DNA of 40,625 nucleotides from a virus (UHGV-0137877), one strand, 5' to 3'. Shown: positions 3,570-33,347, counted from the stretch's first letter. Translations and numbers: made by a program. Notes: generated from the sequence alone by a model not told the origin.

Positions 3570-3646
3570 TTACCGTTGAGGTAATAATTATGCTTATTTG
3601 GTTTGGTGTCAATAGATATGAGTTAAAAAAATTACCCGTAAGGTAA
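3570..3646. promoter_or_regulatory. Leftward early promoter with two operator sites (TTACC-N5-GGTAA at 3570-3584 and 3632-3646)
   Basis: Two perfect 15-bp palindromes flank a minus-strand TTGACA -35-like and ATAATT -10-like hexamer pair. Confidence 0.6.
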
Positions 3647-3656
3647 TCTATCTGGC

Positions 3657-3682
3657 AATAAAAAAGCCGCCATGAGGCGGCT
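3657..3682 (-). terminator. Rho-independent terminator after the repressor gene
   Basis: Hairpin AGCCGCC-atga-GGCGGCT followed by a U-run on the minus strand. Confidence 0.6.
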
Positions 3683-3703
3683 TACTTACTGAAAAATATA
3701 GTT

Positions 3704-4288
3704 TTATTGTTTGCTTTTTTCGTTCTGGTTGATGACAAATTCAATGTAACTTTCGATCTTTGCTTTCTCGGTTTCGGGTAACAATGCGTAGCGTGAGCGG
3801 TCATAGTTGATAGTCGCAGGGTCGTGCGGGTGAATCAGTAGTTCATATCCGTGACGCCCGAATGCGGATGCAACATTCTCCAGGGTGGAAATGGAAACGC
3901 TGACCTCATTGTTTAACAGGCGGCTGATTGTCACCTGGGCGACGCCGGATGCGCGGTGAAGTTTTCCCTGTGTTGAAAGGTCGCGGCTTTCGCTCATCCA
4001 GCGTTCCAGGTTGTGAGCCGCCAGCTGACCAATGTCGCTTGGGCCGACAGGCTGAAAACCTTCCTGAGAAAGCGAGCGATCGATATCAAGCCAGTTACGG
4101 GGTTTATTGGCGGCAGCTTCAATTTTTCGCGCAACCTGGTCGCCGATAACCTTCTTGCCAAGAGCCCAGCGGTTTACCAGATTTGCCTGAGTTCCAAGTT
4201 TTTCTGCCATCCGCGTCTGAACACCATTGAATTCACGGTCGATCAAGTCGTTGAGATTTTGCCTGCGGACGTCCTGGATACTTTTCAT
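3704..4288 (-). CDS. Prophage repressor (CI-like), two HTH domains, no S24 peptidase domain
   Basis: 194 aa; N-terminal HTH (QTRMAEKLGTQANLVNRWALGKK) and a second HTH-like segment (ASGVAQVTISRLLNNEVSVSISTLENVA); divergent from the cro-like gene. Confidence 0.7.
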   Translation of the reverse strand: MKSIQDVRRQNLNDLIDREFNGVQTRMAEKLGTQANLVNRWALGKKVIGDQVARKIEAAANKPRNWLDIDRSLSQEGFQPVGPSDIGQLAAHNLERWMSESRDLSTQGKLHRASGVAQVTISRLLNNEVSVSISTLENVASAFGRHGYELLIHPHDPATINYDRSRYALLPETEKAKIESYIEFVINQNEKSKQ

Positions 4289-4343
4289 TTTCTGGAAAAT
4301 CGCCTCATATATGAATCAGTAGATGATTCAATTTAAAGCAATA

Positions 4344-4406
4344 TTACCCAACAGGTAAATGCACCTCATAGGTAACTATCCTTGATTTTTGTTACCTTAT
4401 GGGTGA
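4344..4406. promoter_or_regulatory. Tripartite operator between repressor and cro-like genes
   Basis: TTACC-caaca-GGTAA (4344-4358), gcACC-tcata-GGTAA (4361-4375), TTACC-ttatg-GGTgA (4392-4406). Confidence 0.6.
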
Positions 4407-4442
4407 ATATTTATTATCTGAAATAAATATCAGGCAATAGCT

Positions 4443-4673
4443 ATGAGCGATAACGGACATTTCGATTTCAAAAAGCACTGGCTTGCACTTACTCCGGATG
4501 AGCGTGAAGCCTTCGCACAGGAAGCCGGAACGACGAGTCACTATATCCAGACTCACTTAACAGGCAAGCGCAAAATGCCAGGTAAGGTATTGATGAATGG
4601 GCTTTTTAAAGCCTGTAAAACAAGACAATGGCTGCGCTCAAAAGCAGAACTGGCATACTTCTTCTACTCATGA
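4443..4673 (+). CDS. Cro-like HTH regulator
   Basis: 76 aa; divergent from repressor; LTPDEREAFAQEAGTTSHYIQTHLTGKRKMP resembles YdaS/Cro-type HTH proteins. Confidence 0.6.
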   Translation: MSDNGHFDFKKHWLALTPDEREAFAQEAGTTSHYIQTHLTGKRKMPGKVLMNGLFKACKTRQWLRSKAELAYFFYS

Positions 4674-4695
4674 TATCCAGCTACAACCCTCTGTA

Positions 4696-4717
4696 GACCG
4701 CCACCCGGCGGTCTTTT
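4696..4717 (+). terminator. Rho-independent terminator after the cro-like gene
   Basis: GACCGCC-accc-GGCGGTC followed by TTTT. Confidence 0.55.
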
Positions 4718-4728
4718 CATATCTATTC

Positions 4729-4743
4729 GTACCTCAAAGGTAA
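4729..4743. promoter_or_regulatory. Operator site (gTACC-tcaaa-GGTAA) after the cro terminator
   Basis: 15-bp palindrome matching the operator family in 9 of 10 fixed positions. Confidence 0.5.
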
Positions 4744-4821
4744 TAAAAAACCAAATCTGGTTGATCAAATTTTCCAATTGTGCAAAATAGCCAATATCAA
4801 TAACAAAAAGGGGCGGAAAAA

Positions 4822-5034
4822 TTGAAGATAGTAACCAGAATGGAGGCCGCAAAAGCCGGGTTAAATCGCTATTTCACAGGAAAGCGGTGCCGTCACGGCC
4901 ATCTCTCTGAAAGGTATGTTCTGAACGGAACATGTGTTGAATGTGCAATGAATAGCGCCAACCGCCATCGTAATGAATTTGCTTGTGCACTAAAGAGTGC
5001 AAGAGGGGAAACCTATGGCAAGCAGCTGGATTAA
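4822..5034 (+). CDS. Small zinc-finger-like protein in the cII position
   Basis: 70 aa; probable TTG start with GGGG RBS; C-x4-H...C-x2-C cluster (CRHGH...CVEC). Confidence 0.4.
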   Translation: MKIVTRMEAAKAGLNRYFTGKRCRHGHLSERYVLNGTCVECAMNSANRHRNEFACALKSARGETYGKQLD

Positions 5035-5845
5035 GGTTGAAGTTATCACTCCTGATAAACCTGAAATTTTTCAGATAGCAGAAATTCTGGGTATTGATCC
5101 AGATGCTGTTCTTGGAAAGCTGGTTCGTATATGGGCATGGGCTGACCAGCAAACAATAGACGGTAACGCTGGCAGCGTTACAAAAGGAGTACTTGATAGA
5201 CTCGCTTTTATTACAGGATTTGCTGACGCCCTCATTAGCGTCGGATGGCTTGCTTATCATGACGGCAAACTAATTCTTCCAAACTTTGAGCGACATAATG
5301 GAGAATCATCGAAAAAACGTGCACTTACGAATAGAAGAGTGGCAGAGCATCGAAAACGAGTAACGCAAAAAGTAACGCCAACAGCGTTACAAAAGGAGTT
5401 ACCAGAGGAAGAGGAAGAGGAAGATATATATAAAACCCCACACATAGCGCACGTGCGCGAGGGTGCTCCGACCAGTGAAGCGAACAGTACGCCGTTGCAG
5501 GTGGCAGAACCTGAATTTCTGGATGGCCTGAGTGAACCCATCGGGAAATTTCCGATGACAGATGGCTGGCTACCGTCGCCAGATTTTCGGCGGCGTGCTG
5601 CGCTGTGGGGAACGGCCCTGCCGGAACCGGAATTTACACCTGCTGAACTTGCTGCATTCCGGGATTACTGGATGGCTGAGGGCAAAGTGTTCACGCAGGT
5701 TCAGTGGGAACAAAAATTCGCCAGGCACGTAAATCATATCAGGGGAAAATCAAAAAATGCCGGGAAAAGCGATGAGCTTGACTGGAATAACACTGACTGG
5801 ATAGAAGGGGTGTGGGATGAAATCAACTCCAGAACTTCTCAATGA
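5015..5845 (+). CDS. Replisome organiser (O-like) with DnaT-like C-terminal region
   Basis: ORF track 4997..5845; preferred ATG at 5015 with GAGGGG RBS; acidic linker (EEEEEED); C-terminal FRDYWMAEGKVFTQVQWEQKF resembles DnaT-type domains. Confidence 0.55.
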   Translation: MASSWIKVEVITPDKPEIFQIAEILGIDPDAVLGKLVRIWAWADQQTIDGNAGSVTKGVLDRLAFITGFADALISVGWLAYHDGKLILPNFERHNGESSKKRALTNRRVAEHRKRVTQKVTPTALQKELPEEEEEEDIYKTPHIAHVREGAPTSEANSTPLQVAEPEFLDGLSEPIGKFPMTDGWLPSPDFRRRAALWGTALPEPEFTPAELAAFRDYWMAEGKVFTQVQWEQKFARHVNHIRGKSKNAGKSDELDWNNTDWIEGVWDEINSRTSQ

Positions 5846-6593
5846 GTACGATCGCTTACGTGAGCATGGTGTTGCTGTGCATGAAGAGCGGCGTGACAGC
5901 AATGGCAAAAAGGAGCAGGTTGCTAGAATTTTCAATGAACTATTTGTCCAGTTACAGGCTGCATTTCCTGCAAGCGTTTCGACCATAAGGGAGCAGAACA
6001 AACTTAATGAATTCCGTAAGCAATGGATGCTTGCGTTTCTGGAGAATGGGATCACTACAATGGAACAGGTTAACGCTGGTATGCGCCACGCCCGCGCCAG
6101 TGAGTCTCCGTTCTGGCCGTCGCCAGGGCAATTCATCAAGTGGTGTAAAGACAGCAAGATGGTTCTTGGCGTCACCATTGACGATGTGATGGCGGAGTTT
6201 CACCGGTACAGCAAGGAAAAAAGTTTATATCCTGGTGGTCCCGAAAGATTCCCGTGGCGACATCCGGTTATGTACTGGGTCGTATGTGATACCCGCCGTG
6301 CAATGTATCAGCGCCAGCTTAGCGAGATTGAGGTTGAGAAACACGCGCGCAGGCTGCTCGATGATTGGGCGAAAAAGGTGGCTTCCGGACAGCAGATACC
6401 GGATCCGGTGATCAGCATACAGGCAAAGCCAGAACCCATGAGTACGCCTCCGGACACAGGGAGAGACGTTTACCATCCACCAGGGCGAAGTTTCGGGTGC
6501 ATGCCTAACGCCGCCACCCTTGGGGGAATAACACCGGCGCAGTGGCTGATGGAGGAATACAGGCGGGGAAAGGCGGCAGGATTTATCAAGTAA
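5817..6593 (+). CDS. P: Replication protein P-like helicase loader
   Basis: 258 aa; ENGITTMEQVNAGMRHARASESPFWPSPGQFIKWC closely matches the conserved core recalled from lambda P. Confidence 0.75.
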   Translation: MKSTPELLNEYDRLREHGVAVHEERRDSNGKKEQVARIFNELFVQLQAAFPASVSTIREQNKLNEFRKQWMLAFLENGITTMEQVNAGMRHARASESPFWPSPGQFIKWCKDSKMVLGVTIDDVMAEFHRYSKEKSLYPGGPERFPWRHPVMYWVVCDTRRAMYQRQLSEIEVEKHARRLLDDWAKKVASGQQIPDPVISIQAKPEPMSTPPDTGRDVYHPPGRSFGCMPNAATLGGITPAQWLMEEYRRGKAAGFIK

Positions 6594-6597
6594 TACC

Positions 6598-6618
6598 AGC
6601 GCGATAGCGCATTTTTTT
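6598..6618 (+). terminator. Weak terminator after the P-like gene
   Basis: Short GC hairpin (GCGC-gata-GCGC) followed by a T7 run. Confidence 0.4.
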
Positions 6619-6630
6619 ACGTCTCAATAA

Positions 6631-6707
6631 TTACCTATCAGGTAACAAAATATTCTAAACTCTATTGATTTCGTGTCTTATGTGGTTTTTAATTACCTTA
6701 GAGGTAA
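6631..6707. promoter_or_regulatory. Promoter region with two operator sites (6631-6645, 6693-6707) and an ATGTGGTT element (6680-6687)
   Basis: TTACC-tatca-GGTAA and TTACC-ttaga-GGTAA; TTGATT -35-like (6665-6670) and TTTAAT -10-like (6688-6693); second site overlaps the RBS of the 6711 gene. Confidence 0.55.
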
Positions 6708-6710
6708 ATC

Positions 6711-7064
6711 ATGAGAAAACAGATACAGGCTCTTGGTCGACTCAAAACAGGCCAGATGAACAAAACAGAATCTGCGTATTGCCAGCACCTTGAGCAGCGT
6801 AAACGTGCAGGGGAAATCGCCTGGTATCGATTCGAGGGTATCAAGCTGCGGTTAGCTGACAACTGCTTCCTGACTGTAGATTTTGCCGTGATGTTGGCTG
6901 ACGGGCAGTTGGTGATGGTGGACGTTAAGGGAAGTAAGTCAGTCTTTACTGACGATGCGAGAGTCAAGATGAAGGTTGCGGCAGACAGCTATCCGTTTGT
7001 CTTTCAGGTTGCTTATCCAAAACCTAAAAAGCTCGGTGGTGGATGGGAGGTTGAGGAACTATGA
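6711..7064 (+). CDS. DUF1064-like phage protein
   Basis: 117 aa; pattern (TESAYCQHLE...W..FEGIKLRLA...DFAV...VDVKG) recalled from the DUF1064 family. Confidence 0.5.
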   Translation: MRKQIQALGRLKTGQMNKTESAYCQHLEQRKRAGEIAWYRFEGIKLRLADNCFLTVDFAVMLADGQLVMVDVKGSKSVFTDDARVKMKVAADSYPFVFQVAYPKPKKLGGGWEVEEL

Positions 7065-7669
7065 GCGAGAAGCCCAATGCTGCGGGATTGATTGTATCCG
7101 GTGATAAAAACCCGAATTGGAAGGGTGGGAAAATCGAAAAGGTTTGTTCCGTATGTGGCAGGCAATATCAGGTTAAGCGAGCCAACTCATCTTCAAGGTT
7201 CTGCTCACTTCAGTGTGTAGGAATTTCACAGCGAGGCAAGACGGTAAATCGGGAACTAAAGCGAGTATTAAAAATATGCTGCGTATGCGGATCTTCGTTC
7301 TCCGTTTTCTTGAGTCATGAGAAGCGTCATAAATGCTGCTCGAAACAGTGTTCCAACATAATGCGTTCTTCTCTGATGAAGGGGGAAGGAAATCCAAACT
7401 GGTCTGGTGGATTATCGAGATTGCCGTATCCGTGGGATTTCCGAGAAACGAGCAAGAGGGTTATTGAGCGAGATGGTTTTACTTGTCAGAACCCAGGTTG
7501 TGATGGAACAGACAAAAGGCTAACAACTCATCACATCAATTACGACAAGCAAGACTGTCGTCAGGAGAACCTTATTTGCCTTTGTTCGAGCTGTAACTCG
7601 AAGGCTAATTTCGGTCGGCATAAGTGGCAAAAGTTTTATGAATCACTGATGAAAAATAGATCGGCATGA
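7061..7669 (+). CDS. HNH endonuclease
   Basis: 202 aa; HNH core (TTHHINYDK...NLICLCSSCN) plus repeated GxKNPNWxGG and Cys-rich segments. Confidence 0.75.
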   Translation: MSEKPNAAGLIVSGDKNPNWKGGKIEKVCSVCGRQYQVKRANSSSRFCSLQCVGISQRGKTVNRELKRVLKICCVCGSSFSVFLSHEKRHKCCSKQCSNIMRSSLMKGEGNPNWSGGLSRLPYPWDFRETSKRVIERDGFTCQNPGCDGTDKRLTTHHINYDKQDCRQENLICLCSSCNSKANFGRHKWQKFYESLMKNRSA

Positions 7670-7730
7670 ATCGACGATCTTTTTAGTTATCAATGTAATC
7701 AATAAGTTATGTGGATAAGCGAGGGTAAAG

Positions 7731-8267
7731 ATGGAAAGTAATATCAAAGGGTTAGTTGCCGCCGGGCATGAGATGGCTTCGGAACTGAAAGCAGAATGTG
7801 GTGCCGTTGATATGCGCAGTGTGGCAAAGCTGCTCAGCGATTTGGCAACGCAACTGGAAGTGCAACTGGTGCGTGCTAATGCGCTGGCTGTGGAGAATGC
7901 GGGGCTGAAGTCTGGCGCTATGGGCGAAATCAAGGTTATCAACCGTGGAGGTCAGGCATATTGCGTAAAAGATGGAGTGCAAGTTAATCCCATGTATGCA
8001 AGAGGGTGGAATGACTATCGCGCAAAGTCTCTGCAATCAGACACCCCAGCCACCGACGCTTTCCTTGCTGAAGTACGGGCGCAGGGCGTGGATGCTGCTA
8101 TAGAAGCTGCAAAAAATCTGGTGGCCCAAGAATATGAGTATAAGGATTTCAAAGCGGCGCAGAGTGATTGCTGTATGCACCCTGGTTCAGACCTGGTAGG
8201 GAAGGTTGAAATGACTGAGTGGTTAGTTGACTTTGCTGAACAGCTTCGCAAAGGAGGCAACCAGTGA
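7731..8267 (+). CDS. Hypothetical nin-region protein
   Basis: 178 aa; good RBS (GAGGGTAAAG); no confident family. Confidence 0.5.
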   Translation: MESNIKGLVAAGHEMASELKAECGAVDMRSVAKLLSDLATQLEVQLVRANALAVENAGLKSGAMGEIKVINRGGQAYCVKDGVQVNPMYARGWNDYRAKSLQSDTPATDAFLAEVRAQGVDAAIEAAKNLVAQEYEYKDFKAAQSDCCMHPGSDLVGKVEMTEWLVDFAEQLRKGGNQ

Positions 8268-8563
8268 CTGTATGTCTTATTGATAAACGTCGACGTGGAC
8301 AACAAATACCATCTGTTGAAATGCCGAATCACACATGGTTTTGCGTACTTGATATCGATGGTATGGATACGTTGATCGACACTCGTCATTACTGCGATAC
8401 CGCAACAGCTACTCCTGCAAAAGCAAAGAAAATGGCTGCTCTGATAGAAAACTGGACTCCACCTGATGGTTGGTGCAATGGGAATGATCGAGATTGGCAC
8501 GAAAAAATGAAGGGCTATATCTGCGATTTTTTACGTAAATGCAACGGCTTCAGGGTGATGTGA
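8264..8563 (+). CDS. Hypothetical protein
   Basis: 99 aa; GTG start with AGGAGG RBS, overlapping the upstream stop. Confidence 0.45.
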   Translation: MTVCLIDKRRRGQQIPSVEMPNHTWFCVLDIDGMDTLIDTRHYCDTATATPAKAKKMAALIENWTPPDGWCNGNDRDWHEKMKGYICDFLRKCNGFRVM

Positions 8564-8564
8564 C

Positions 8565-9233
8565 ATGAGCAAGATTGACTATCAGGCACTGCGTGAAAAG
8601 GCAGAGAAAGCAACGTGTGGTGTGTGGTCGCTCGAATATGGAGAGGGCCGATTTGATGGTGATGATGCACTAATTCATCGCGAGGCTGCTGGGTATATTC
8701 CCATTTGCAGAATTGAAGGAGCGCATCCAGAAAGCGGTTTCGATGAAGATTTCCAAATGGAACAGCAGGCCAATGCTGAATTCATCGCCGCAGCCAGTCC
8801 AGCTACCGTGCTGGCGCTGCTGGATGAACGGGAAAGAAACCAGCAATACATCAAACGCCGCGACCAGGAGAACGAGGATATTGCGCTAACGGTAGGGAAG
8901 CTGCGCGTTGAGCTGGAAGGCAAAGACAAGCTGATTGCAGAGCTTAGAAAACAATGCGCTGAATGGGAGCGAAAAGCATTAAGCAACTTTGAAGAGTGTG
9001 CTGCGATGGCTGAACGTATCGAAAAGATGAGTAAGCAAAGTTGCGAAGCCCGGGAGCGTGATTTGTTTGAATCATGGGTAATGCATTCAATTTGTATCTC
9101 CAAATCGACGCTTGAAGGATTGCGTACCGAAACTGGATACCGTAACGCAACCTTATCAGGCACAGACTTCAACCGCATGTGGGAACAATGGAAATCTATC
9201 CGCGCCGCTGGCATTCGCACTAAAGGAGAGTGA
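8565..9233 (+). CDS. Ead/Ea22-like protein
   Basis: 222 aa; N-terminal AEFIAAASPATVLALLDE segment plus coiled-coil middle, resembling the Ea22 family. Confidence 0.45.
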   Translation: MSKIDYQALREKAEKATCGVWSLEYGEGRFDGDDALIHREAAGYIPICRIEGAHPESGFDEDFQMEQQANAEFIAAASPATVLALLDERERNQQYIKRRDQENEDIALTVGKLRVELEGKDKLIAELRKQCAEWERKALSNFEECAAMAERIEKMSKQSCEARERDLFESWVMHSICISKSTLEGLRTETGYRNATLSGTDFNRMWEQWKSIRAAGIRTKGE

Positions 9234-9234
9234 T

Positions 9235-9750
9235 ATGGCGTTAACACACCGCGAACTCTGTCAGATTGCGTACAAGTTCCTTAAGCGCAACGGGTTCAAG
9301 GTTTGTTTTCATGACCGCTTTATAGCTGTAACCAGTACCGGAGAACAGCCAGATGCTATGGGGTTCAGAAATTCAGCATCATGCCTGATAGAGGCGAAGT
9401 GTTCTCGTGCTGATTTGTTGGCAGATAGAAAAAAGCGTTTTCGTAAAAATCCGTCTCTTGGAATGGGCGACTGGCGATTCTTTATTAGTGAGCCGGGAAT
9501 TATTTCAATTGAGGATTTACCACCTGGCTGGGGATTACTTCACGTTGTTAACGGAAGAGTACGGAAAGTACATGGGTGGCCCAAGGGTAATTGCTGTTGG
9601 GGTAACCCTGAAGATAAACCTTTTATTGGGAATAAGCAGGTTGAATGCGATTACATGTTATCTGCATTAAGGCGCATGGAGTTGAGAGGGCACCTTAATG
9701 AAATATATGACGGTGTAATTGTTAATAAGAAAGAAGGAAACGCGGCATGA
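9235..9750 (+). CDS. PD-(D/E)XK nuclease-fold protein (MmcB-like)
   Basis: ORF track 9112..9750; preferred ATG 9235 after AAGGAGAG; motif QPDAMGF...LIEAKCS. Confidence 0.5.
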   Translation: MALTHRELCQIAYKFLKRNGFKVCFHDRFIAVTSTGEQPDAMGFRNSASCLIEAKCSRADLLADRKKRFRKNPSLGMGDWRFFISEPGIISIEDLPPGWGLLHVVNGRVRKVHGWPKGNCCWGNPEDKPFIGNKQVECDYMLSALRRMELRGHLNEIYDGVIVNKKEGNAA

Positions 9751-10610
9751 TCACTATTACCAAAGAGCGACTGCTGACAATCAAGCAGTGGCGCGAAACA
9801 TACGGACCTGATAGCAACGTTGTACTGCCAGCAGAAGAAGCGGAAGAACTGGCGCGTATCGTGCTGGCATCGCTGGAAGCAGAGCCTGTTCTGTATCAGT
9901 CCTGCACTCGCCCCACCTGGAATAGCGGTGTTCCGTGGACGGAATGGAAAGAACGTAGTCGTGAGTGCTACGAAGACGATTTGCGTTTTACAGACACGCC
10001 TGACCATGCCGGTTGGATATACAAATGTCGAAAACTATATACCACTCCGCCAGCGCCGATAGCGTTAGAGGCCATTGAAAACGCAATTGAATACATTCGT
10101 AGTATCGCTTTTCACATCGATGAAGACGATTACCACGGCAAACATATTGCGTATTTCATGCGACAAGCATTGGCCTGGCTGGAAGGGCATTCATGCAGCG
10201 ACGACAGACTGGGTAAAGCCGACAATCAACCAGTACGCGGCAACCAGGCTGCCGAATCCAATCGCGGTAATGAGTGGACCGGCAATCCTGATATTGATAA
10301 CGCAATCATCATGCTCGACCGCATAGATACGGCGGAAAGTTACGATGATGACCGTATTGAGGCTGTTAAGGCTGTTTTGCGTAGACTGGCAGGCAACTCT
10401 CCGGTAACTCCGGATGGTTGGATAAGCTGTAGTGAGCGAATGCCCGCTCAAGATGATTGGATTTTAATTTATTCAAAGCACGGCGAGTATATGGCAGGAC
10501 AGGTACAAGGGGAATACGTGGAGTTGAGCGACGGCACTTTATCGTGGTTAGGGAACGCCTTGTACTGGATGCCTCTACCGGAACCGCCGCAGGAGGTTAA
10601 CCGTGGCTAA
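9747..10610 (+). CDS. Phage protein with DUF551-like C-terminal domain
   Basis: 287 aa; C-terminal GWISCSERMPAQDDWILIYS...WMPLPEPP. Confidence 0.5.
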   Translation: MITITKERLLTIKQWRETYGPDSNVVLPAEEAEELARIVLASLEAEPVLYQSCTRPTWNSGVPWTEWKERSRECYEDDLRFTDTPDHAGWIYKCRKLYTTPPAPIALEAIENAIEYIRSIAFHIDEDDYHGKHIAYFMRQALAWLEGHSCSDDRLGKADNQPVRGNQAAESNRGNEWTGNPDIDNAIIMLDRIDTAESYDDDRIEAVKAVLRRLAGNSPVTPDGWISCSERMPAQDDWILIYSKHGEYMAGQVQGEYVELSDGTLSWLGNALYWMPLPEPPQEVNRG

Positions 10611-10884
10611 CCTACAACTTGCCGTCAAAGGTGAATACTTCGATGCCATGATTCGCGGGGAGAAAACGGAAGAGTATCGCCTGTGCAATGACTACTGGAA
10701 TAAGCGAATTATGTTCCGGGAATATGACCGCCTGATTATCACAAAGGGATATCCGAAGCGCGACGATTCCAGTCGCAGAATTGATGTTCCGTATGGTGGA
10801 TATGAAATCAAGACAATCACACATCCGCACTTCGGTGATAAACCGGTAAAGGTGTTCGCGATAAAGGTGAATATTGATGGCTAA
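10603..10884 (+). CDS. ASCH/DUF3850-like small protein
   Basis: 93 aa; GTG start after GGAGG; LAVKGEYFDAMIRGEKTEEYR pattern. Confidence 0.4.
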   Translation: MANLQLAVKGEYFDAMIRGEKTEEYRLCNDYWNKRIMFREYDRLIITKGYPKRDDSSRRIDVPYGGYEIKTITHPHFGDKPVKVFAIKVNIDG

Positions 10885-11215
10885 ATCAGCAGCAGAGCGC
10901 AAAGCCGCGCAGCGCGCTCGGCAGTCCGCCGCCGGTGAGCGCAAAATTGAACTGGTGCTGGATAAGCAGGAGCAGGAAATGCTGGCGCGGAACTGCGCCG
11001 CCCGGCGCCCTGGTCACGATCCCTATGAAATGGCCGAGTACATCGCGCTGCTGATCCGCCAGGATGATGCACGTGTGCGCGGGCGTATAAAATCGATCAG
11101 CAGAAAACTTTGCGGTAAGTGCGGCGAGAGAGTTCCCGTTAATTCATGCCCGTGTAATGGTGACTCGCAATGCTGGGTGACTAAAGGCTGGCATGAAACG
11201 AAATTAATAGTGTGA
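10877..11215 (+). CDS. Hypothetical protein with C-terminal Cys cluster
   Basis: ORF track 10874..11215; ATG 10877 after AAGGTGA; basic N-terminus, CGKCGERVPVNSCPC. Confidence 0.45.
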   Translation: MAKSAAERKAAQRARQSAAGERKIELVLDKQEQEMLARNCAARRPGHDPYEMAEYIALLIRQDDARVRGRIKSISRKLCGKCGERVPVNSCPCNGDSQCWVTKGWHETKLIV

Positions 11216-11445
11216 CATGTCACGAAGGTGTTATGCCAAAAATACGCTACGACCTTGAAGATATGAGAGATAACTCAGCAAATTTTCCGAAAGAGGTTAA
11301 ATTTCTCATGCATAAGTATGGTTGCGCCAGGAGGGATATAGTTATCGACAGTCAGCACCCTTGCGGCGAGGATGTAATTTTCATTCGCGGTAAATGGGAA
11401 GGGTATCTTGACGAGAGTTTTTACGATGAATTTGATGGACTTTGA
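11212..11445 (+). CDS. Hypothetical protein
   Basis: 77 aa; track start is GTG at 11212 overlapping the upstream stop; alternative ATG at 11233. Confidence 0.4.
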   Translation: MTCHEGVMPKIRYDLEDMRDNSANFPKEVKFLMHKYGCARRDIVIDSQHPCGEDVIFIRGKWEGYLDESFYDEFDGL

Positions 11446-11519
11446 ATACTGCCGCCAACTATGGCGGCTTTATTTTGCATGGTACTATTACCACAACGGT
11501 AACTATTACCACGGTGGTT

Positions 11520-12116
11520 ATGATGCCTGCTGAACCTAAAACCTATAAACGCAAATCAACGCAATTTAAGCCGCTCACAGCAATGCAGGAGGCTTATTGC
11601 CAGTCATACATCAAAACGCCTGAAAACCAGACTCAGGCAGCGATTAACGCAGGATTCTCCCCAAATACAGCGGCAGTTAAAGCCAGTGTCATGATGCGCG
11701 ATGAACGCATTCAAAAACGGATTGCCGAGTTGATGGAGGAGCGCAACAAACGAATGCGCGTCAGTGCTGATTACGTTCTCATGCGCCTGGTGGAGATCGA
11801 CCAGATGGACGTGATCGACATCCTCAACGACGATGGGAGCCTTAAGCCAATCCGCGAGTGGCCGAAAATCTGGCGCACTACGCTTAGTGGCTTTGATCTG
11901 TCATCGACCATCATGAACATGAACGAGGATTCGATAGAGACAATCCTCAAAAAAATTAAATGGCCTGACAAGGTGAAGAACCTCGAACTGATTGGTAAGC
12001 ACGTCGACGTCAACGCATTCAAAGAACGCCTGGATGTTAATGTGAATGTGACAATTGCTGATCGCATAGCGGCAGCCAGGAAGAGACTGAAAGAACGTCA
12101 GGATGGCAATCAGTGA
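11520..12116 (+). CDS. Terminase small subunit
   Basis: ORF track 11442..12116; preferred ATG 11520; LTAMQEAYCQSYIKTPENQTQAAINAGFSPNTAAVKAS fits the small-terminase pattern; directly upstream of the large subunit. Confidence 0.6.
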   Translation: MMPAEPKTYKRKSTQFKPLTAMQEAYCQSYIKTPENQTQAAINAGFSPNTAAVKASVMMRDERIQKRIAELMEERNKRMRVSADYVLMRLVEIDQMDVIDILNDDGSLKPIREWPKIWRTTLSGFDLSSTIMNMNEDSIETILKKIKWPDKVKNLELIGKHVDVNAFKERLDVNVNVTIADRIAAARKRLKERQDGNQ

Positions 12117-13588: not shown

Positions 13589-13638
13589 TCCGCTTGAGGG
13601 GATAATGTTGTTGATATCCTCTGATGAGGATAAAACAA

Positions 13639-13658
13639 AGCCAGCTCATAGGCTGGCT
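13639..13658. terminator. Bidirectional terminator between the terminase gene and the convergent 124-aa ORF
   Basis: AGCCAGC-tcatag-GCTGGCT hairpin flanked by A-run upstream and T-rich downstream. Confidence 0.6.
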
Positions 13659-14063: not shown

Positions 14064-14088
14064 TAAAAAAATGCCCGGCGAACCGGGC
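14064..14088 (-). terminator. Rho-independent terminator between the tRNA and the 124-aa ORF
   Basis: GCCCGG-cgaa-CCGGGC hairpin followed by a U7 run on the minus strand, ending 10 nt before the ORF's RBS. Confidence 0.6.
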
Positions 14089-14257
14089 GAACTGGAAGCA
14101 ATGAGTTATGCCTTCCGTGGCTGTACTGGTTTACAGCATGAAGTCATCGCAATGGCGTCCTGCTGTAAAAAGGGCAAGGGCGGTGATAGTCCTTCAAGGG
14201 AAACCATCACCGCCAAGCACCTGGAACTTCTGGCATCACGGTCCTTAGGCGTGATTC

Positions 14258-14334
14258 TGGCGTGGCATGCAGGATTCGAACCTGCGACCAACCGCTTAGA
14301 AGGCGGTTGCTCTGTCCAACTGAGCTAATGCCAC
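14258..14334 (-). tRNA. tRNA-Arg (anticodon UCU)
   Basis: 77-nt cloverleaf folded by hand: 7-bp acceptor stem, D-arm GCTC/GAGC, anticodon stem ACCGC/GCGGT with loop CTTCTAA, T-arm GCAGG-TTCGAAT-CCTGC, discriminator G, encoded CCA. Confidence 0.9.
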
Positions 14335-14656: not shown

Positions 14657-14734
14657 TTACCTGAAAGGTAATAATTAACGCGTTAAATGTCAACCTTCTA
14701 CGATAAATAAATCATATGTGGTTAAATTGGTAAT
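14657..14734. promoter_or_regulatory. Late-operon promoter region: operator (14657-14671), ATGTGGTT (14716-14723), GGTAAT (14729-14734)
   Basis: Perfect TTACC-tgaaa-GGTAA, then the same ATGTGGTT-N5-GGTAA arrangement seen at 33323-33340. Confidence 0.55.
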
Positions 14735-27925: not shown

Positions 27926-27930
27926 ATTAA

Positions 27931-30405
27931 ATGAGACAGGAATGTATACAAGCGGTCCAGCAGGCGGCGCAGCGCACGTTAACGGCGCGAGAAATACAGA
28001 ACATTGAAGACCGCATTTATCGCAATATGCGCTCCATTGCTCGTGATGACCCTATGTCGTGGCGACAACTTTCCGAGTCAGAGCGGCTGTATCGTGCAGC
28101 ACAATTGGCATCTGAAGAATTACAGCGAGAAGCGGCATTAAAGAAACGTCGTGTGGCTCTTACTATAGCCGCACGTCAGAGATTGGATAAATTTATCAAT
28201 AGCTATCAAGGGGCTGATGGGAAACTTGGCGCTCTTAACCGTACTATTGCTTTTAATGCAGACGGTAAATCGAATTTCCTCTCTGTTGAGTCCAGAACAA
28301 AAGCCACTCGTGATTATGCATTGAGTCAATTGCAGGAGGCATTCGAAGCAGTTGATCCTCGCTTTTTTGGCCTGTTTGAAGATGAAGCGGGCGTGCGTGA
28401 CCTGGTATATGAAATGCGAGGGCAAAATACTGGCAATGCTAAAGCAAGAAAAGGTGCTAAGGCGTGGAGAGAAGTGACAGATCTACTCCGCCGCCGGTTT
28501 AATGATGCTGGTGGGGACATTGGCTATCTCGAAAACTGGGGGATCCCTCAACATCATTCTATGGAAAAGGTTGGGGCGGTATCAAAAGATAAATGGGTTA
28601 GCGATGTTATAGGTAAGCTGGATCGCAAATATTATACCCGAGCCGATGGACAACTGATGAACGATGCCGAGTTGTCTGCATTTCTTGGAGAGGCTTATAA
28701 CACGATCGCTACTGGTGGGCTGAATAAGCTTACTGATACCGGAATGCGAATTTCCGGCGCACGTGCTAACCGTGGTAATGCATCACGACAGATACATTTC
28801 AAAGATGCAGATTCCTATCTGCAATATCAGCAACTTTATGGCGATCGCTCTCTATGGGAAATCATGGTCGGTCACCTGGAAGGTATCAGTAAAGATATTG
28901 CACTGGTGGAAACATATGGCCCAAACCCCGATCATGTTTTCCGCTCCCTTCTTGATCTGGTTAAGGCAGAAACGGCAACAGCTAACCCGAGTAAAACCGG
29001 TAAAGTCGAGCGGCTGGCGAACAACACAGAGAATCTGTACAACTTTATTTCTGGAAAGACACAGCCTGTAGCGAATCCGCACATCGCGCGATGGTCTGAC
29101 AATATCCGCAACTGGCTGGTTGCCAGCAGACTCGGATCCGCGTTGCTGTCATCGTTCTCTGATCTTGGAACCATGTATCTGTCTGCGAAGGTTACCAACC
29201 TTCCAATGAACCAGTTATTCCGCAACCAGCTTGAAGCTATGGACCCAACGAACCGTACAGAACTTGCGCGGGCGCGCCGCGCTGGTCTGGCGATGGAATC
29301 TCTACTTGGCAGCGTTAACCGCTGGGCGATGGATAATATGGGGCCGTCAGTGTCTCGTTGGGCGGCAACGGCCGTAATGCGTGCCAGTGGGCTTACAGCA
29401 TGGTCAGATGCGCACAAGCGCGCCTATGGCGTAACCATGATGGGAAGCCTGGGAGAAGTAGTGTCACGGACACCAGACCTTCGTAGCCTCGATGACTCTG
29501 ATTTTCGTATCCTGAAAAGCAAAGGGATTACTGACACAGACTGGAGCGTATGGAAGCTGGCGCAACAGGAGGACTGGGGGAACGGTAATAATACGATGCT
29601 GACACCGGAAAGCATTATGCGTATCCCTGATTCAGCAGTTAAACATCTTGGTGAGCCTGAACGAGTGAAATTTGAGGCAATGCGTAAACTGCTCGGTGCC
29701 GTAACTGAAGAAGTTGATATGGCTGTTATTACACCGGGAGCACGTGAGCAACTGATAACCGGTTCTGGTATTCAGCGTGGAACATGGAAAGGTGAATTAA
29801 CGAGAAGTGTTTTCCTGTTTAAATCGTTCCCTATCTCGGTTGTTATGCGTCACTGGTCACGCGCTATGGGTATGCCGTCTGCTGGTGGGCGTGCGGCATA
29901 TATTGCGACGTTTATTGCCAGTACGACCATTCTTGGCGCTTTGTCGCAGCAACTTAACGACCTTGCGTCTGGTCGTAATCCTCGAGAGATGACAGGAGAA
30001 GGTGCCGCAAAATTCTGGCTTGGTGCTCTACTGAAAGGTGGTGGCCTTGGCCTTTACGGTGACTTTTTATTGTCAGATCACACTAGGTACGGAAGCGGCG
30101 CGCTGGCGTCGATGCTTGGCCCGGTAGCTGGTCTGGTTGATGACGTAGTGAAGATTGCTCAGGGCATACCGTTAAATGCTGTGGAAGGGAAGAGTGAGCA
30201 GACTGGTGGTGATCTGGTGAAGCTGGGGAAAGGTTTGATGCCAGGTGCGAATCTCTGGTACTTAAAGGCGGCTCTCGATCATATGATCTTTAACCAGATG
30301 CAGGAGTATTTTTCACCAGGCTATTTGCGTAAAATGGAGCAACGTTCGAAGAAAGAGTTTAATCAGACATACTGGTGGCGACCTCAGGATGTCACTCCGC
30401 AATAA
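27931..30405 (+). CDS. Internal virion/ejection protein (gp16-like, second part)
   Basis: 824 aa; GAGAGG RBS; last large gene of the ejection block. Confidence 0.45.
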   Translation: MRQECIQAVQQAAQRTLTAREIQNIEDRIYRNMRSIARDDPMSWRQLSESERLYRAAQLASEELQREAALKKRRVALTIAARQRLDKFINSYQGADGKLGALNRTIAFNADGKSNFLSVESRTKATRDYALSQLQEAFEAVDPRFFGLFEDEAGVRDLVYEMRGQNTGNAKARKGAKAWREVTDLLRRRFNDAGGDIGYLENWGIPQHHSMEKVGAVSKDKWVSDVIGKLDRKYYTRADGQLMNDAELSAFLGEAYNTIATGGLNKLTDTGMRISGARANRGNASRQIHFKDADSYLQYQQLYGDRSLWEIMVGHLEGISKDIALVETYGPNPDHVFRSLLDLVKAETATANPSKTGKVERLANNTENLYNFISGKTQPVANPHIARWSDNIRNWLVASRLGSALLSSFSDLGTMYLSAKVTNLPMNQLFRNQLEAMDPTNRTELARARRAGLAMESLLGSVNRWAMDNMGPSVSRWAATAVMRASGLTAWSDAHKRAYGVTMMGSLGEVVSRTPDLRSLDDSDFRILKSKGITDTDWSVWKLAQQEDWGNGNNTMLTPESIMRIPDSAVKHLGEPERVKFEAMRKLLGAVTEEVDMAVITPGAREQLITGSGIQRGTWKGELTRSVFLFKSFPISVVMRHWSRAMGMPSAGGRAAYIATFIASTTILGALSQQLNDLASGRNPREMTGEGAAKFWLGALLKGGGLGLYGDFLLSDHTRYGSGALASMLGPVAGLVDDVVKIAQGIPLNAVEGKSEQTGGDLVKLGKGLMPGANLWYLKAALDHMIFNQMQEYFSPGYLRKMEQRSKKEFNQTYWWRPQDVTPQ

Positions 30406-30414
30406 GGAAGTGTT

Positions 30415-30588
30415 GTGTTTTTAATTATTTTGAGTGTGATAATTTCTGGTGGGTTGTTATTTATTGACCGCTACAAATATTTTCTTAACCCTCAGACTCA
30501 AGCTATTTGCTGGTTCATCTTTGTTGTGCAGGGAATAGTTCTTGTTGCAAGCCTTATTGAGGGGAGGCCTCTGATTTTTACTGGGTAA
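30415..30588 (+). CDS. Small hydrophobic protein (57 aa, GTG start; not in ORF track)
   Basis: GTG at 30415 just after AAGGAAG; two predicted transmembrane segments; open frame to TAA at 30586-30588. Confidence 0.25.
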   Translation: MFLIILSVIISGGLLFIDRYKYFLNPQTQAICWFIFVVQGIVLVASLIEGRPLIFTG

Positions 30589-30600
30589 ATAGGTGACTAC

Positions 30601-30897
30601 ATGCAAGCGATAGGATTCATTGTTTATATCGTCGTTGGCCTTTTTCAGTTGGCAGCAATTATGGCTGGGCTTGAATCATGGTGGGGATTGCACTGGATAA
30701 TTGCAGCCCCCATTGCTTTCATCGTGAGCTATATTCCATTTGTTGGAGCGATTGTTGGTATGGTTGGCGCTGTGGATGTATGGCGGTGGGAGTGGTGGCA
30801 GGCTGGCCTTCTCTTCTTTGGTGGGATCATCTTTGCTATTGTCTGCGGTGGAATGTCATCATTTTTCGAATGGCTATCATTCAGAAAAGGGACGTGA
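30601..30897 (+). CDS. Trp-rich integral membrane protein
   Basis: 98 aa; AGGTGA RBS; three or four hydrophobic helices; last gene of the late operon. Confidence 0.55.
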   Translation: MQAIGFIVYIVVGLFQLAAIMAGLESWWGLHWIIAAPIAFIVSYIPFVGAIVGMVGAVDVWRWEWWQAGLLFFGGIIFAIVCGGMSSFFEWLSFRKGT

Positions 30898-30905
30898 CAT
30901 GTCAC

Positions 30906-30930
30906 AGGCCGCTTTCGCGGCCTTGTTTTT
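30906..30930 (+). terminator. Rho-independent terminator ending the late operon
   Basis: AGGCCGC-tttc-GCGGCCT followed by TGTTTTT. Confidence 0.65.
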
Positions 30931-30970
30931 AACGAATGCCACCGCCACCCGGGCGGGAATCCGCAGACAC

Positions 30971-30992
30971 AAAAAAGCCCGCAGAGCGGGCT
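30971..30992 (-). terminator. Rho-independent terminator after the DUF2335-like gene
   Basis: AGCCCGC-aga-GCGGGCT followed by a U6 run on the minus strand; overlaps the stop codon. Confidence 0.6.
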
Positions 30993-31540
30993 TACTTTTC
31001 TTCAGGTTTATTGTCTTCAGATTTCTTCTTGATGCTTGGTTTTTGTCTAAGAACGAAAATACCAGCCACTGCAACAACTGTACCGATCACTGTGCCTGCT
31101 AGAACTTCATGACCTGTTAAACCTAATAATGTTGCACAAGCTACTGTAAAAATAGTTGCACTCAGGCCAAACCACTGCCCACGTTTATCTCTATTAATAG
31201 CCCCGTCAAGTGCCTTTTCCTCCATTTTCTGGCGGTGAGCAAACTCCTTCTCCGTCAGCTGGAAGATGCGTTCGGGGGCATCAGGTAAAATATCCTGATA
31301 CCCGCGAAGCAGATAGGGGGGAGGAAGCGGACCCTGAAACGCATGGTGAGCGACAACTATCTCCTGAATTTCAGGGCGATCAAGAACTCTTGTGAAGGCA
31401 TCTGGGTGTTGAATGATCTCGTTACTTAGCCCTTCCTCAACTTCCTCGAACTCAGTTTCTTCGTTATCACTTGGTTGCCCAATAGATTTTTGCATATTTG
31501 TCGAAGGACATTCCTTTAGCTTCTGGTTTTCCTCTTGCAT
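30992..31540 (-). CDS. DUF2335-like membrane protein
   Basis: 182 aa (167 if it starts at the internal ATG 31495); acidic N-terminus, PPPYLL...ERIFQLTEKEFAHRQ core, two C-terminal transmembrane helices, Lys-rich tail. Confidence 0.55.
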   Translation of the reverse strand: MQEENQKLKECPSTNMQKSIGQPSDNEETEFEEVEEGLSNEIIQHPDAFTRVLDRPEIQEIVVAHHAFQGPLPPPYLLRGYQDILPDAPERIFQLTEKEFAHRQKMEEKALDGAINRDKRGQWFGLSATIFTVACATLLGLTGHEVLAGTVIGTVVAVAGIFVLRQKPSIKKKSEDNKPEEK

Positions 31541-31793
31541 TTGAGTTTTTCCCTGTCACTATTGCCCATTTTCCGCCAGCAGGCGCTGCAATTTTTTTTC
31601 CGTTCTTTACTATATATTCAGCATAAACACGATTTTCTGACCGTCTGAGATCGTCTCCGACCATATTCATGTCTCTTGATATAACTTTGACGACAGAGTC
31701 TCTGTTTAAAGCCTTGGCATAGTTGGAGCCAGGAACGATACCCAAAGGGGTGCCAGACTCTATAGCCAGCTCCTTGACATATCTTCTGCTCAT
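31467..31793 (-). CDS. Small basic protein, overlaps the DUF2335-like gene
   Basis: 108 aa from ATG 31793 (GAGG RBS 6 nt upstream); overlaps the next ORF by 29-74 nt in another frame; own promoter with operator. Confidence 0.4.
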   Translation of the reverse strand: MSRRYVKELAIESGTPLGIVPGSNYAKALNRDSVVKVISRDMNMVGDDLRRSENRVYAEYIVKNGKKIAAPAGGKWAIVTGKNSNARGKPEAKGMSFDKYAKIYWATK

Positions 31794-31813
31794 ATGAACC
31801 TCAACCAATCGAC

Positions 31814-31847
31814 TTTACCAATCGGGTAATTTTAAACATGAGTATAA
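31814..31847 (-). promoter_or_regulatory. Promoter with operator site for the 108-aa/DUF2335-like pair
   Basis: Perfect TTACC-aatcg-GGTAA (31814-31828) 14 bp downstream of a minus-strand TATACT -10-like hexamer (31842-31847). Confidence 0.5.
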
Positions 31848-31914
31848 TGCTTTTAACTGCAACGAGTGTAAACAATTATTGATAATTGTAGGCACATCCC
31901 TGTGCCGCCGCCCG

Positions 31915-32625
31915 TCAGAAGAACCCTGCCTTGTCGTTGATGTACTCCGCGTGAGTCTGGATATCACGCAGGCATTTGCTCACACCAACGATGTAGCAGA
32001 ACATGCTGGTCAGCTCCGCCGCCGCGCCCGATACATCGTGCCCGTCTTCCTGCAACTGGTTCAGCAAATTCATCAGCAGTGAGTTCTCCGTCAGGCCGAG
32101 AACACCAGACGGCGAATGAATCAGGCTACGGTAGCCGGGCTTCAGTGGGGCGCTGTAGGTTTTGTTCTCTATCTTCATTGCCTGCATCACTGCTGATGCT
32201 GTGGCGTTGGCTACCTGGTCGGCAACCATCTTTATGCGTTCTTCCTGCGGGAGCGAGTTTTTAATGTAACTTCCGGTGCGGCGGATCTGAGGAAGAACCT
32301 CACCTGTAACCCATTTACGAAAGCGGTAGGGGATAGTGCCTGGTGTCACCGCATCGCGGCAGCGGAGGATCAGTGTGTAGAGGCCTGACTCGGAGATGAT
32401 GTTGATCTCTTTTACTCGGCTGTCAAAAATTGCACGATGTTCATGCCCTATGTTGAACATAGACCTTTCATCATCATCCAGTTTTTCAAGTGCTTGGGTG
32501 ACGTTTTGGATACGCAGCGCACTACAAACGTCTTGGGCTACAAACCATGGTTGGCCATCGATAATGATGGAACGGATAGGGTTAACAGATTCAAATTTGA
32601 AGATGGCAGTTTGAGCATTAGCCAT
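31915..32625 (-). CDS. Antirepressor (BRO-N domain plus Ant-type C-terminal domain)
   Basis: ORF track 31915..32640; preferred ATG 32625 after GGAGAT; N-terminal FKFESVNPIRSIIIDGQPWFVAQDVCSAL is a classic BRO-N start. Confidence 0.8.
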   Translation of the reverse strand: MANAQTAIFKFESVNPIRSIIIDGQPWFVAQDVCSALRIQNVTQALEKLDDDERSMFNIGHEHRAIFDSRVKEINIISESGLYTLILRCRDAVTPGTIPYRFRKWVTGEVLPQIRRTGSYIKNSLPQEERIKMVADQVANATASAVMQAMKIENKTYSAPLKPGYRSLIHSPSGVLGLTENSLLMNLLNQLQEDGHDVSGAAAELTSMFCYIVGVSKCLRDIQTHAEYINDKAGFF

Positions 32626-32781
32626 GGTGGTTATCTCCACTTAGTGATTTTAATCACCACCGCAACGCCAATTACTGGTGGTGAACTGGACAAGGTTGGC
32701 GTACCGGCCTAAGTGGTACCGGCGTCCTTTCGGACCCCTGCCCAGCCCACCATAATTCGGATATAGCTGTGCTTAACGCAT

Positions 32782-32803
32782 AAAAAAACCACGTCTGGCG
32801 TGG
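32782..32803 (-). terminator. Rho-independent terminator between the two antirepressor genes
   Basis: CCACG-ccaga-CGTGG followed by a U7 run on the minus strand. Confidence 0.6.
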
Positions 32804-32894
32804 TATGCGCCACTTAGTAACTCGGGACGCCAATCCCGGCACTGGATTTTGCCAGTGCTCAATTACTATGGCACAAGAGGAGTGCGATGTAAAT

Positions 32895-32909
32895 TTACCG
32901 CAAAGGTAA
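32895..32909. promoter_or_regulatory. Operator site (TTACC-gcaaa-GGTAA) downstream of the small antirepressor gene
   Basis: Perfect 15-bp palindrome of the operator family. Confidence 0.5.
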
Positions 32910-32940
32910 ATATAAGCACTCCACTTGGTAATTGCAAACC

Positions 32941-33198
32941 TTATCTGGTTTGTTTTCGTAATTGTTCGGCACAATAGTCGAGATGTGTTTGCAGATCCTG
33001 CATAGACATCTGTGAGCTGGTGACGTAGTTAATCAGTGCAGTCAGTTCGGCAAGTGGGCCATCGACATTAAATCCATCCTTATCGAGATCCCGGAGTAAT
33101 TTCATCAAGTGCGATCCCTCCACCAGTGACCTGACGCCTCCCGGCGTGTGAATCCTTTCGGTAAATCCGTCTTCCAGTGGATAGTGATACTGCTGCAT
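32941..33198 (-). CDS. Small antirepressor-like protein (Ant C-terminal domain only)
   Basis: ORF track 32941..33213; preferred ATG 33198 after GGAGAAG; roughly half its residues are identical to the C-terminal 85 residues of the 31915-32625 antirepressor (IHTPGGV...LMKLL..L...G..V.G..AELT...). Confidence 0.65.
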   Translation of the reverse strand: MQQYHYPLEDGFTERIHTPGGVRSLVEGSHLMKLLRDLDKDGFNVDGPLAELTALINYVTSSQMSMQDLQTHLDYCAEQLRKQTR

Positions 33199-33220
33199 CT
33201 TAATCTTCTCCATGCAATAA

Positions 33221-33236
33221 CTGTATATTTATACAG
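33221..33236. promoter_or_regulatory. LexA (SOS) box
   Basis: CTGTATATTTATACAG, a perfect CTGT-N8-ACAG palindrome with AT-rich centre, 8 bp upstream of the small antirepressor ORF. Confidence 0.8.
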
Positions 33237-33275
33237 TAGCAAATAATTTGTTTGCTATCCAGCACGTTTTGCAAA

Positions 33276-33347
33276 TTACCTGAAAGGTAATATCTATTCG
33301 TATTCACAGTCTTTCTATCCATATGTGGTTTTTCAGGTAATAGAATA
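33276..33347. promoter_or_regulatory. Tailspike promoter region: operator (33276-33290), ATGTGGTT (33323-33330), GGTAAT/TAGAAT -10-like
   Basis: Perfect TTACC-tgaaa-GGTAA; same layout as the 14657-14734 region. Confidence 0.55.

Follow-up and report, generated by a model that had tools for sequence, protein, structure and literature searches.

The sequence UHGV-0137877 (40,625 nucleotides; this whole stretch is called the window below) carries, from base 1 to about 38737, a Uetakevirus prophage (epsilon15/phiV10 group) in Escherichia coli. The 15-bp palindrome TTACC-N5-GGTAA is repeated in the non-coding DNA of this prophage. As judged from sequence, these palindromes are very probably the operators of the prophage repressor Rep (3704..4288, minus strand), a protein of the SPC32H/epsilon15 Rep family. 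The sites flank rep in the OL/OR layout and are also found before packaging, head, tailspike and accessory units.

Escherichia phages HEMP4, ZX5, TL-2011b, phiv142-3 and phiV10 share 97-98% identity with the prophage over most of its length. Its end is marked by the attR core ATTGAGTGGGAATGATT at 38721-38737, i.e., a published attachment core. It is followed by E. coli chromosome (38738-40625, with yfgG, yfgH and yfgI) that is present in all of the 5426 complete genomes searched. The integrase end of the prophage is missing, being cut at the left edge of the window. The non-coding share of the prophage is 6.9%.

Number, location and conservation of the palindrome

The palindrome was searched exhaustively on both strands, the background being obtained from dinucleotide shuffles (n=100). 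Ten perfect copies are found (3570, 3632, 4344, 6631, 6693, 11488, 14657, 31815, 32895 and 33276) for a shuffle mean of 0.01, and none of the 100 shuffles reaches 10. Three copies have one mismatch (4392, 4729 and 11506), leading to 13 sites with at most one mismatch vs. 0.6 expected. The copy at 4361 has two mismatches, yet the equivalent site of epsilon15, SPC32H and Klebsiella phage BUCT711 has none; on this comparison of sequences it is counted as a genuine site.

As a control, the letters of the half-site were permuted in 29 orderings. The permuted motifs give 0-1 perfect, 0-3 one-mismatch and 2-30 two-mismatch copies, the values for the real motif being 10, 3 and 26, respectively. The two-mismatch class other than 4361 is thus background, since permuted motifs give similar numbers. 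The other 25 copies of this class, which are mostly inside genes, were rejected.

All of the 14 sites retained are localized in non-coding DNA, with a probability of about 2.5e-12 for the ten perfect ones. It must be noted that 11488 and 11506 are inside a mechanical open reading frame (ORF) starting at TTG (11442-12116), yet they lie before ATG 11523 and after a terminator (11451-11468). ATG 11523 is the annotated start of terS in ZX5 and epsilon15; the phiV10 RefSeq record uses the long form from TTG 11442. ATG 11523 is likely the terS start, because a start at TTG 11442 would put the terminator and two operators inside the gene.

The original prediction had listed at least nine perfect and three degenerate copies, far above chance expectation, all intergenic and none noticed in coding sequence. 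The excess and the location are borne out by the exhaustive count, a comparable density in coding DNA not being found. The nine perfect copies are all present, although the one placed at 31814 starts at 31815 and a tenth (11488) had been missed. The three degenerate copies also hold, i.e., 4392 and 4729 with one mismatch and the conserved 4361 with two, but 11506 had escaped notice.

The palindrome is found at the same loci in ZX5, epsilon15, SPC32H, Enterobacter phage Tyrion and Klebsiella phage BUCT711, i.e., in phages of four host genera. The shared loci are the leftward early promoter (2-3 sites), the rep/cro gap (3), the regions after cro (1) and after the replication genes (2), those before terS (2) and before gp3/portal (1), the ant/tailspike gap (1) and the leftward accessory units (1-2). 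In some of the phages there is also a site ahead of the lysis genes, and one with a single mismatch ahead of int. The latter, TTACC-N5-GGTAT, is conserved upstream of int in all relatives examined (L001 8026, L002 26882, L003 28568, L004 12620 and L009 26960), the int region itself lying outside the window; it suggests that Rep may also touch the int/attP region.

The 49 perfect sites of five genomes have 36 different spacers between constant half-sites. Of the 98 symmetrised counts for the centre base, 96 are A or T, and the flanks favour A...T. Another reading, in which the palindrome would be the target of a host factor, or else an RNA or DNA hairpin signal, has to be considered at this point. 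A stem of 5 bp closing a loop of 5 nt might in principle form, and the sites are in AT-rich regulatory DNA. However, the half-sites are invariant, without compensatory changes in the 49 sites, which is a pattern of protein recognition and not of an RNA helix; the RNA hairpin was rejected on this basis. Moreover, the sites are located on both sides of divergent promoters, the motif accompanies the phage through four host genera, and a variant of it flanks cI and cro in a Psychrobacter phage, pOW20-A. A host factor or a hairpin is thus extremely unlikely.

Part of these sites is annotated in the type phage. The RefSeq record of epsilon15 (NC_004775.2) contains seven features labelled « protein_bind, repressor, lysogeny » with the sequence ATTACC-N5-GGTAAT, three of them at OL and the others in front of terS, gp3 and the tailspike gene and past the replication genes. 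Hence the motif and its spread to late units have already been recognised by the curators of the type phage, and the palindrome is a known feature, ordinary for this phage genus. The phiV10, ZX5 and SPC32H records have no operator features. In the ZX5 paper the operators are not defined and the mode of repression is left open. Text searches for the motif strings returned only unrelated primer sequences.

Probable operators and predicted promoters

All the promoters described here were predicted from the sigma-70 consensus. At three of them the last base of the -10 hexamer is the first T of TTACC and the -35 hexamer is 17 bp upstream, with the same geometry in the other genera: the leftward early promoter PL (TTGACA-17-AATTAT), the post-replication promoter (TTGATT-17-TTTAAT) and the promoter at 32895 (TTGCAA-17-TATATT). 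The chance pass rate of this -10/TTACC geometry is 2.8% per position. In the window, the promoter at 31815 (TAAAAT) shows it as well, and the extended -10 of terS (TGgTACTAT), kept in all four genera, is in the equivalent position. The operator covers about -7 to +8 at five or six predicted promoters, including PL, post-replication, 32895, 31815 and terS. At the rightward promoter PR it occupies the spacer between -35 and -10.

The sites are also paired. A partner is found 62 bp upstream at PL and at the post-replication promoter; the distance is exact in 11 of the 12 pairs from six genomes, the twelfth being 63 bp. Two pairs are shorter, i.e., 17 bp for the two sites on the rep side of the rep/cro gap and 18 bp for the terS sites.

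On the left, the perfect operator OL1 (3570..3584) is at about -7 to +8 of PL (-35 TTGACA 3612-3607, -10 AATTAT 3589-3584, leftward), in a geometry that is the same in epsilon15, Tyrion and BUCT711. OL2, perfect also (3632..3646), is 62 bp upstream of OL1, centre to centre, and its edge is 17 nt downstream of the rep terminator (3683-3664). The divergent rep/cro region contains three sites: an OR3-like perfect operator on the rep side (4344..4358), an OR2-like operator, GCACC-N5-GGTAA with two mismatches (4361..4375), 17 bp from OR3, and an OR1-like operator with one mismatch (4392..4406) within the spacer of PR (rightward; -35 TTGATT 4382-4387 or TTGTTA 4389-4394, -10 TATTAT 4412-4417). A different palindrome, CTGAAATAAATATCAG, is present at 4418-4437, between the -10 of PR and the cro start; it is kept in Tyrion and ZX5 and not in epsilon15 and BUCT711. 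Beyond cro, the one-mismatch operator 4729..4743 comes 15 nt past the cro terminator (4695-4714); a conserved promoter (-35 TTGATC 4761-4766) follows it.

The post-replication promoter (-35 TTGATT 6665-6670, -10 TTTAAT 6688-6693) has two perfect operators. The distal one (6631..6645) is about 10 nt past a terminator-like hairpin with a T run (6598-6618); the proximal one (6693..6707), 62 bp from it and kept in four genera, overlaps the Shine-Dalgarno sequence of the DUF1064 gene. Before terS, the perfect operator 11488..11502 comes directly past the extended -10 (TG 11480-11481, TACTAT 11483-11488), and the one-mismatch operator 11506..11520, 18 bp further, ends 2 nt before the ATG at 11523.

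The perfect operator 14657..14671 is located where a tRNA-Arg unit (leftward) and the gp3/portal unit (rightward) diverge. The -10 (TACCTT 14670-14665) of a conserved leftward promoter, with -35 TTGACA at 14693-14688 and a 17-bp spacer, falls within this operator, and the predicted portal promoter has a GGTAA half-site 62 bp downstream of it. The leftward promoter is followed by a tRNA-Arg (anticodon TCT; 14258..14334, minus strand) detected by ARAGORN and Rfam. The plus-strand ORF 14071-14328 (phiV10 p04) is doubtful because this tRNA-Arg overlaps it on the minus strand.

Three perfect operators are found on the right. The first (31815..31829) is directly past the -10 (TAAAAT 31834-31829) of the leftward promoter of the genes for a 113-aa protein and a DUF2335 protein. 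The second (32895..32909) spans positions -7 to +8 at a leftward promoter (-35 TTGCAA 32937-32932, -10 TATATT 32914-32909) with the same geometry in Tyrion and BUCT711; this promoter is predicted to drive an isrK-like and a C4-like RNA as well as a Bro-N antirepressor gene. The third (33276..33290) is between the leftward promoter of ant and the predicted tailspike promoter (-35 TCCATA 33318-33323, -10 TAGAAT 33341-33346) and overlaps neither core promoter. The portal and tailspike loci have in common a palindrome 50-62 bp upstream of the predicted promoter, the spacer of which carries a GGTAA half-site.

Since four sites are 10-20 nt past intrinsic terminators (3632 for rep, 4729 for cro, 6631 and 11488) and two (4729 and 33276) lie clear of the predicted core promoters, it could be proposed that the dispersed sites are chiefly roadblocks to elongating RNA polymerase, as the stoperators of mycobacteriophage L5, and stop read-through between operons instead of initiation. 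A roadblock role is possible at the four sites past terminators, but it leaves the exact overlap with promoters at other sites unaccounted for. As the chief role of the dispersed sites it is very unlikely: (i) palindromic sites have no orientation; (ii) five or six of the sites are exactly on -7 to +8 of conserved promoter-like elements; (iii) the terminator-proximal sites, 4729 excepted, belong to promoter-associated pairs.

In this phage the lysis cassette (36821 onward) is without an operator, unlike that of epsilon15, SPC32H and Tyrion. The tailspike and lysis genes are separated by a 306-bp gap (36515-36820), which is devoid of a Rep site and of an O-antigen modification gene; an acetylase gene occupies this gap in phiV10, SPC32H and Tyrion.

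Rep, the Cro-like protein and the antirepressors

The 3704-4288 protein is matched over its full length (residues 1-190, E 3.5e-42) by SPC32H Rep (PDB 5D50_A), and shares 99.5% identity with the repressors of ZX5 and phiV10. It is predicted to have an N-terminal helix-turn-helix, a middle dimerisation and a C-terminal tetramerisation domain; this order of domains, together with the interface residues, has been described for Rep (PMC9986798). Only helix-turn-helix families were obtained in the Pfam scan, which returned no S24 autocleavage domain. The alignment of Rep from four genera shows an overall identity down to 43% with NLVNRW invariant. We take NLVNRW, from its sequence, as the putative recognition helix of Rep, and its invariance would explain the identical operator across genera. 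Another invariant residue, F184, is an aromatic at the position aligned to the tetramer-interface Phe190. In the ZX5 paper, overexpression of the repressor stopped the production of free phage and cut the lysis-gene transcripts by more than 99.9%; when overexpressed, the repressor thus blocks lytic growth. In secondary literature Rep is described as a tetramer on palindromic sites, with the DNA-proximal domain pairs about 100 A apart, and Ant as breaking the tetramer. According to one paper (PMC9986798), the mechanism of repression « has not been extensively characterized ».

The ant gene (32941..33213, minus strand) encodes a small SPC32H-type antirepressor (5D50_E, E 4.4e-47) and adjoins the tailspike gene, i.e., the same position as ant in KC911856.1. 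It is preceded by a perfect LexA box, AACTGTATATTTATACAGTA (33219..33238), which contains CTGT-N8-ACAG and is conserved in epsilon15, Tyrion and BUCT711 (four genera). With such a box before an ant homologue, induction is expected via LexA and Ant, and not via cleavage of the repressor.

On the basis of the observed sites, of their conservation and placement around predicted promoters, and of the homologies, we infer Rep binding, bridging by the tetramer and the promoter activities as follows. Two N-terminal helix-turn-helix domains of Rep would read the two TTACC half-sites, the centres of which are 10 bp apart. Rep would be a tetramer with two DNA-binding pairs, so that one tetramer could hold two operators, either 17-18 bp neighbours (OR3/OR2, terS) or 62-bp partners (OL, post-replication); in the latter case the DNA between the operators would be bent or looped. 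At PL, PR, the post-replication promoter, terS and the two leftward accessory promoters, where the operator is on -10/+1 or in the spacer, Rep would exclude RNA polymerase. At portal and tailspike, repression may need bridging to the half-site in the promoter spacer. Nearly all lytic units would thus be shut directly by Rep in the lysogen. Upon DNA damage, LexA would leave the ant box and Ant would dismantle the Rep tetramer, all units being released together.

The divergent cro-like gene (4443..4673, plus strand, 76 aa) has a phrog_35 match, « transcriptional repressor », and its product may possibly bind the same sites as Rep. It can be asked whether this protein, or another conserved phage regulator, is the main reader of the sites, shutting down or re-ordering transcription in lytic growth, with Rep acting only at OL/OR. 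The helix-turn-helix of the Cro-like protein (AGTTSHYIQxHLTG) is invariant in the four genera, and in pOW20-A the Cro recognition helix and the operator core are similar while the repressor helix is different. Rep and Cro are always found together, in one and the same set of 35 Uetakevirus-type records. Given this co-occurrence and conservation, the comparative data cannot tell which protein reads the sites; a search among the 35 records for a mosaic phage with one gene alone, which would separate Rep from Cro, failed. Nevertheless, Cro and repressor share operators in classical switches, so that reading by Cro is compatible with operators of Rep. Furthermore, the epsilon15 curators gave the dispersed sites to the repressor, the paired sites fit a tetramer with two DNA-binding pairs, and a lysogen without Cro still needs its late and accessory promoters silent. 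Reading of the sites mainly by the Cro-like protein, with Rep restricted to OL/OR, is thus very unlikely.

Several points weigh against the sites being operators of Rep at their promoters: (i) 14657 (for the rightward unit), 33276 and 4729 lie clear of the predicted core promoters; (ii) the lysis cassette has no site in this phage; (iii) every promoter is a consensus prediction; (iv) conservation of the Cro-like protein equals or exceeds that of Rep, and the two are always found together; (v) the repressor-binding labels of epsilon15 may rest on experiment or on sequence inspection. On the other side are the homology of Rep, the epsilon15 annotation, the OL/OR layout and the overlap with promoters, which agree with the original prediction that the motif is a repressor operator and the 3704-4288 protein its putative repressor.

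A second antirepressor unit is located at the operator-bearing leftward promoter 32895. An isrK-like small RNA (Hfq-binding; 32782-32858) and a C4 antisense-like RNA (RF01695; 32674-32757), both on the minus strand and above the Rfam gathering score, lie between this promoter and the Bro-N antirepressor gene (31915-32640, minus strand, Bro-N domain). The prophage thus seems to carry two antirepressor systems, i.e., the isrK/C4/Bro-N unit and the small Ant under LexA control.

Known systems and a second promoter motif

The comparison with the SPC32H/epsilon15 Rep-Ant-LexA switch (PDB 5D50, 5D4Z) is the closest at the level of the proteins and sites. Rep and Ant are clear homologues, a LexA box precedes ant, and the palindrome ATTACC-N5-GGTAAT is identical and at the same loci. 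The differences are that Rep is only 43% identical overall, that two extra leftward accessory units have operators here (31815 and 32895), that there is no pre-lysis site, and that OL contains two sites instead of the three of epsilon15 and SPC32H. On every feature tested, the system is, by its sequence, classed as a member of the SPC32H/epsilon15 Rep-Ant family.

Several properties are lambda-like: divergent rep and cro with three operators between them, more operators at the leftward early promoter, palindromic half-sites one helical turn apart, and cooperative binding to pairs, which is expected. Unlike lambda, 9 of the 14 sites are outside the immunity region (4729, 6631, 6693, 11488, 11506, 14657, 31815, 32895 and 33276), eight of them on replication-distal, packaging, head, tailspike and accessory units, and Rep has no S24 autocleavage domain, so that induction would occur via an antirepressor. 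No Q or N homologue is found among the proteins scanned.

In P1, a C1-controlled promoter, the C4 antisense RNA, icd and ant form the immI operon. The P1 C1 operators are asymmetric 17-mers, and the late genes are controlled indirectly via Lpa. The present prophage resembles the C1 regulon by one repressor with many dispersed operators on separate operons (nine loci here), and immI by an operator-bearing promoter (32895) followed by a C4-family RNA and an antirepressor gene. Unlike P1, the site is a 15-bp palindrome, the repressor is of the 5D50 family, unrelated to C1, and the packaging promoter itself carries operators. By analogy, the system appears closest, in its logic, to the dispersed P1 C1 regulon.

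The likeness to L5 is that many copies of one repressor site are present genome-wide in short intergenic regions. The L5 gp71 stoperators are asymmetric 13-mers in one orientation which block elongation. The sites described here differ from these stoperators in being palindromic and mostly on predicted promoters.

The Psychrobacter phage pOW20-A serves as a contrast. The N-terminal domain of its repressor is 38% identical to that of Rep and its C-terminal half, which looks like a putative S24-type cleavage domain, does not align; its Cro-like protein is 48% identical over the helix-turn-helix. The operators of pOW20-A (ATACC-N5-GGTAT), with the same 17-bp pair in OR, are only beside cI and cro, and a Q-like gene is present. 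Unlike the dispersed sites of the present prophage, this is the classical layout, with sites only at OL/OR. The operator/repressor/Cro cassette is thus old, and the genome-wide spread is a feature of the Uetakevirus group. Pseudomonas phage PseuP_224, with a weak similarity to the N-terminal domain of Rep, was dropped, no comparable palindromes being found near its cI.

These comparisons bear on the rest of the original prediction. It had placed an operator at every transcription unit; this applies to almost every predicted promoter, the lysis cassette being without a site. It had proposed a dimeric helix-turn-helix repressor; the half-site centres are indeed 10 bp apart, i.e., one helical turn, but the Rep family is described as tetrameric. 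The coverage of late, tailspike and accessory promoters, said to be unlike lambda, is found at the packaging, head, tailspike and accessory units, while pOW20-A has only OL/OR. The proposed likeness to mycobacteriophages is right for the many dispersed intergenic copies and less so for palindromic, promoter-overlapping sites, which are nearer to the P1 C1 logic. Finally, as had been noticed, no Q or N family is recognised among the 16 proteins scanned with Pfam or PHROGs, i.e., a subset of the ORFs (regulators and early-right proteins). NCBIfam and Pfam give nothing for the Cro-like, gp40-like and gp49-like proteins.

A second motif, approximately CATATNTGGTT and a near-palindrome (AACCATATATGGTT) in Tyrion, is present near most Rep sites. 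Copies are at 3593-3603, 4752-4762, 6677-6687, 14713-14723, 32940-32950, 33320-33330, 33347-33357 (minus strand) and 36750-36760. With at most one mismatch, 11 copies are found vs. 2.6 expected, and 9 of the 11 are in regulatory DNA. Its position varies with the promoter: PL and the post-replication promoter carry it in the spacer, the post-cro and 32895 promoters have it on or next to the -35, and at portal, tailspike and lysis it precedes the -10. All four genera retain it; pOW20-A lacks it. The consensus sequences of IHF, DnaA, CRP, sigma-54, sigma-32 and the extended -10, compared by eye, do not fit it. The motif seems to be undescribed in the literature.

It is possible, though rather doubtful, that the Uetakeviruses use a flat two-motif promoter code. 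Tetrameric Rep would act directly on nearly all promoters (early, replication-distal, packaging, head, tailspike and immI-like) in fixed geometries (-7 to +8, with a partner 62 bp upstream). The second motif (CATATNTGGTT/AACCATATATGGTT), placed in the spacer at early promoters and across the -35 region at portal, tailspike and lysis, would be read by a second phage protein, such as the Cro-like or the gp49-like one (« transcriptional regulator », 10874-11215), turning early promoters down and late promoters up. If this were true, no Q-type antiterminator would be needed.

The value of these results as a discovery is small: the epsilon15 reference annotation already records the motif, assigns it to the repressor and shows it at the packaging, head and tailspike units, and the Rep-Ant-LexA switch has been solved structurally in SPC32H (PDB 5D50). 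The knowledge of the operators is now extended to the phiV10/ZX5 group of E. coli prophages, and the terS start is corrected for the long-ORF annotations. Experiments could still be rewarding on three points, i.e., the second motif, the constant 62-bp distance within pairs and the absence of a recognised late activator; the full list of sites, together with the promoter geometry and the conserved 62-bp pairing, could guide work on the bridging of operators by the tetramer.

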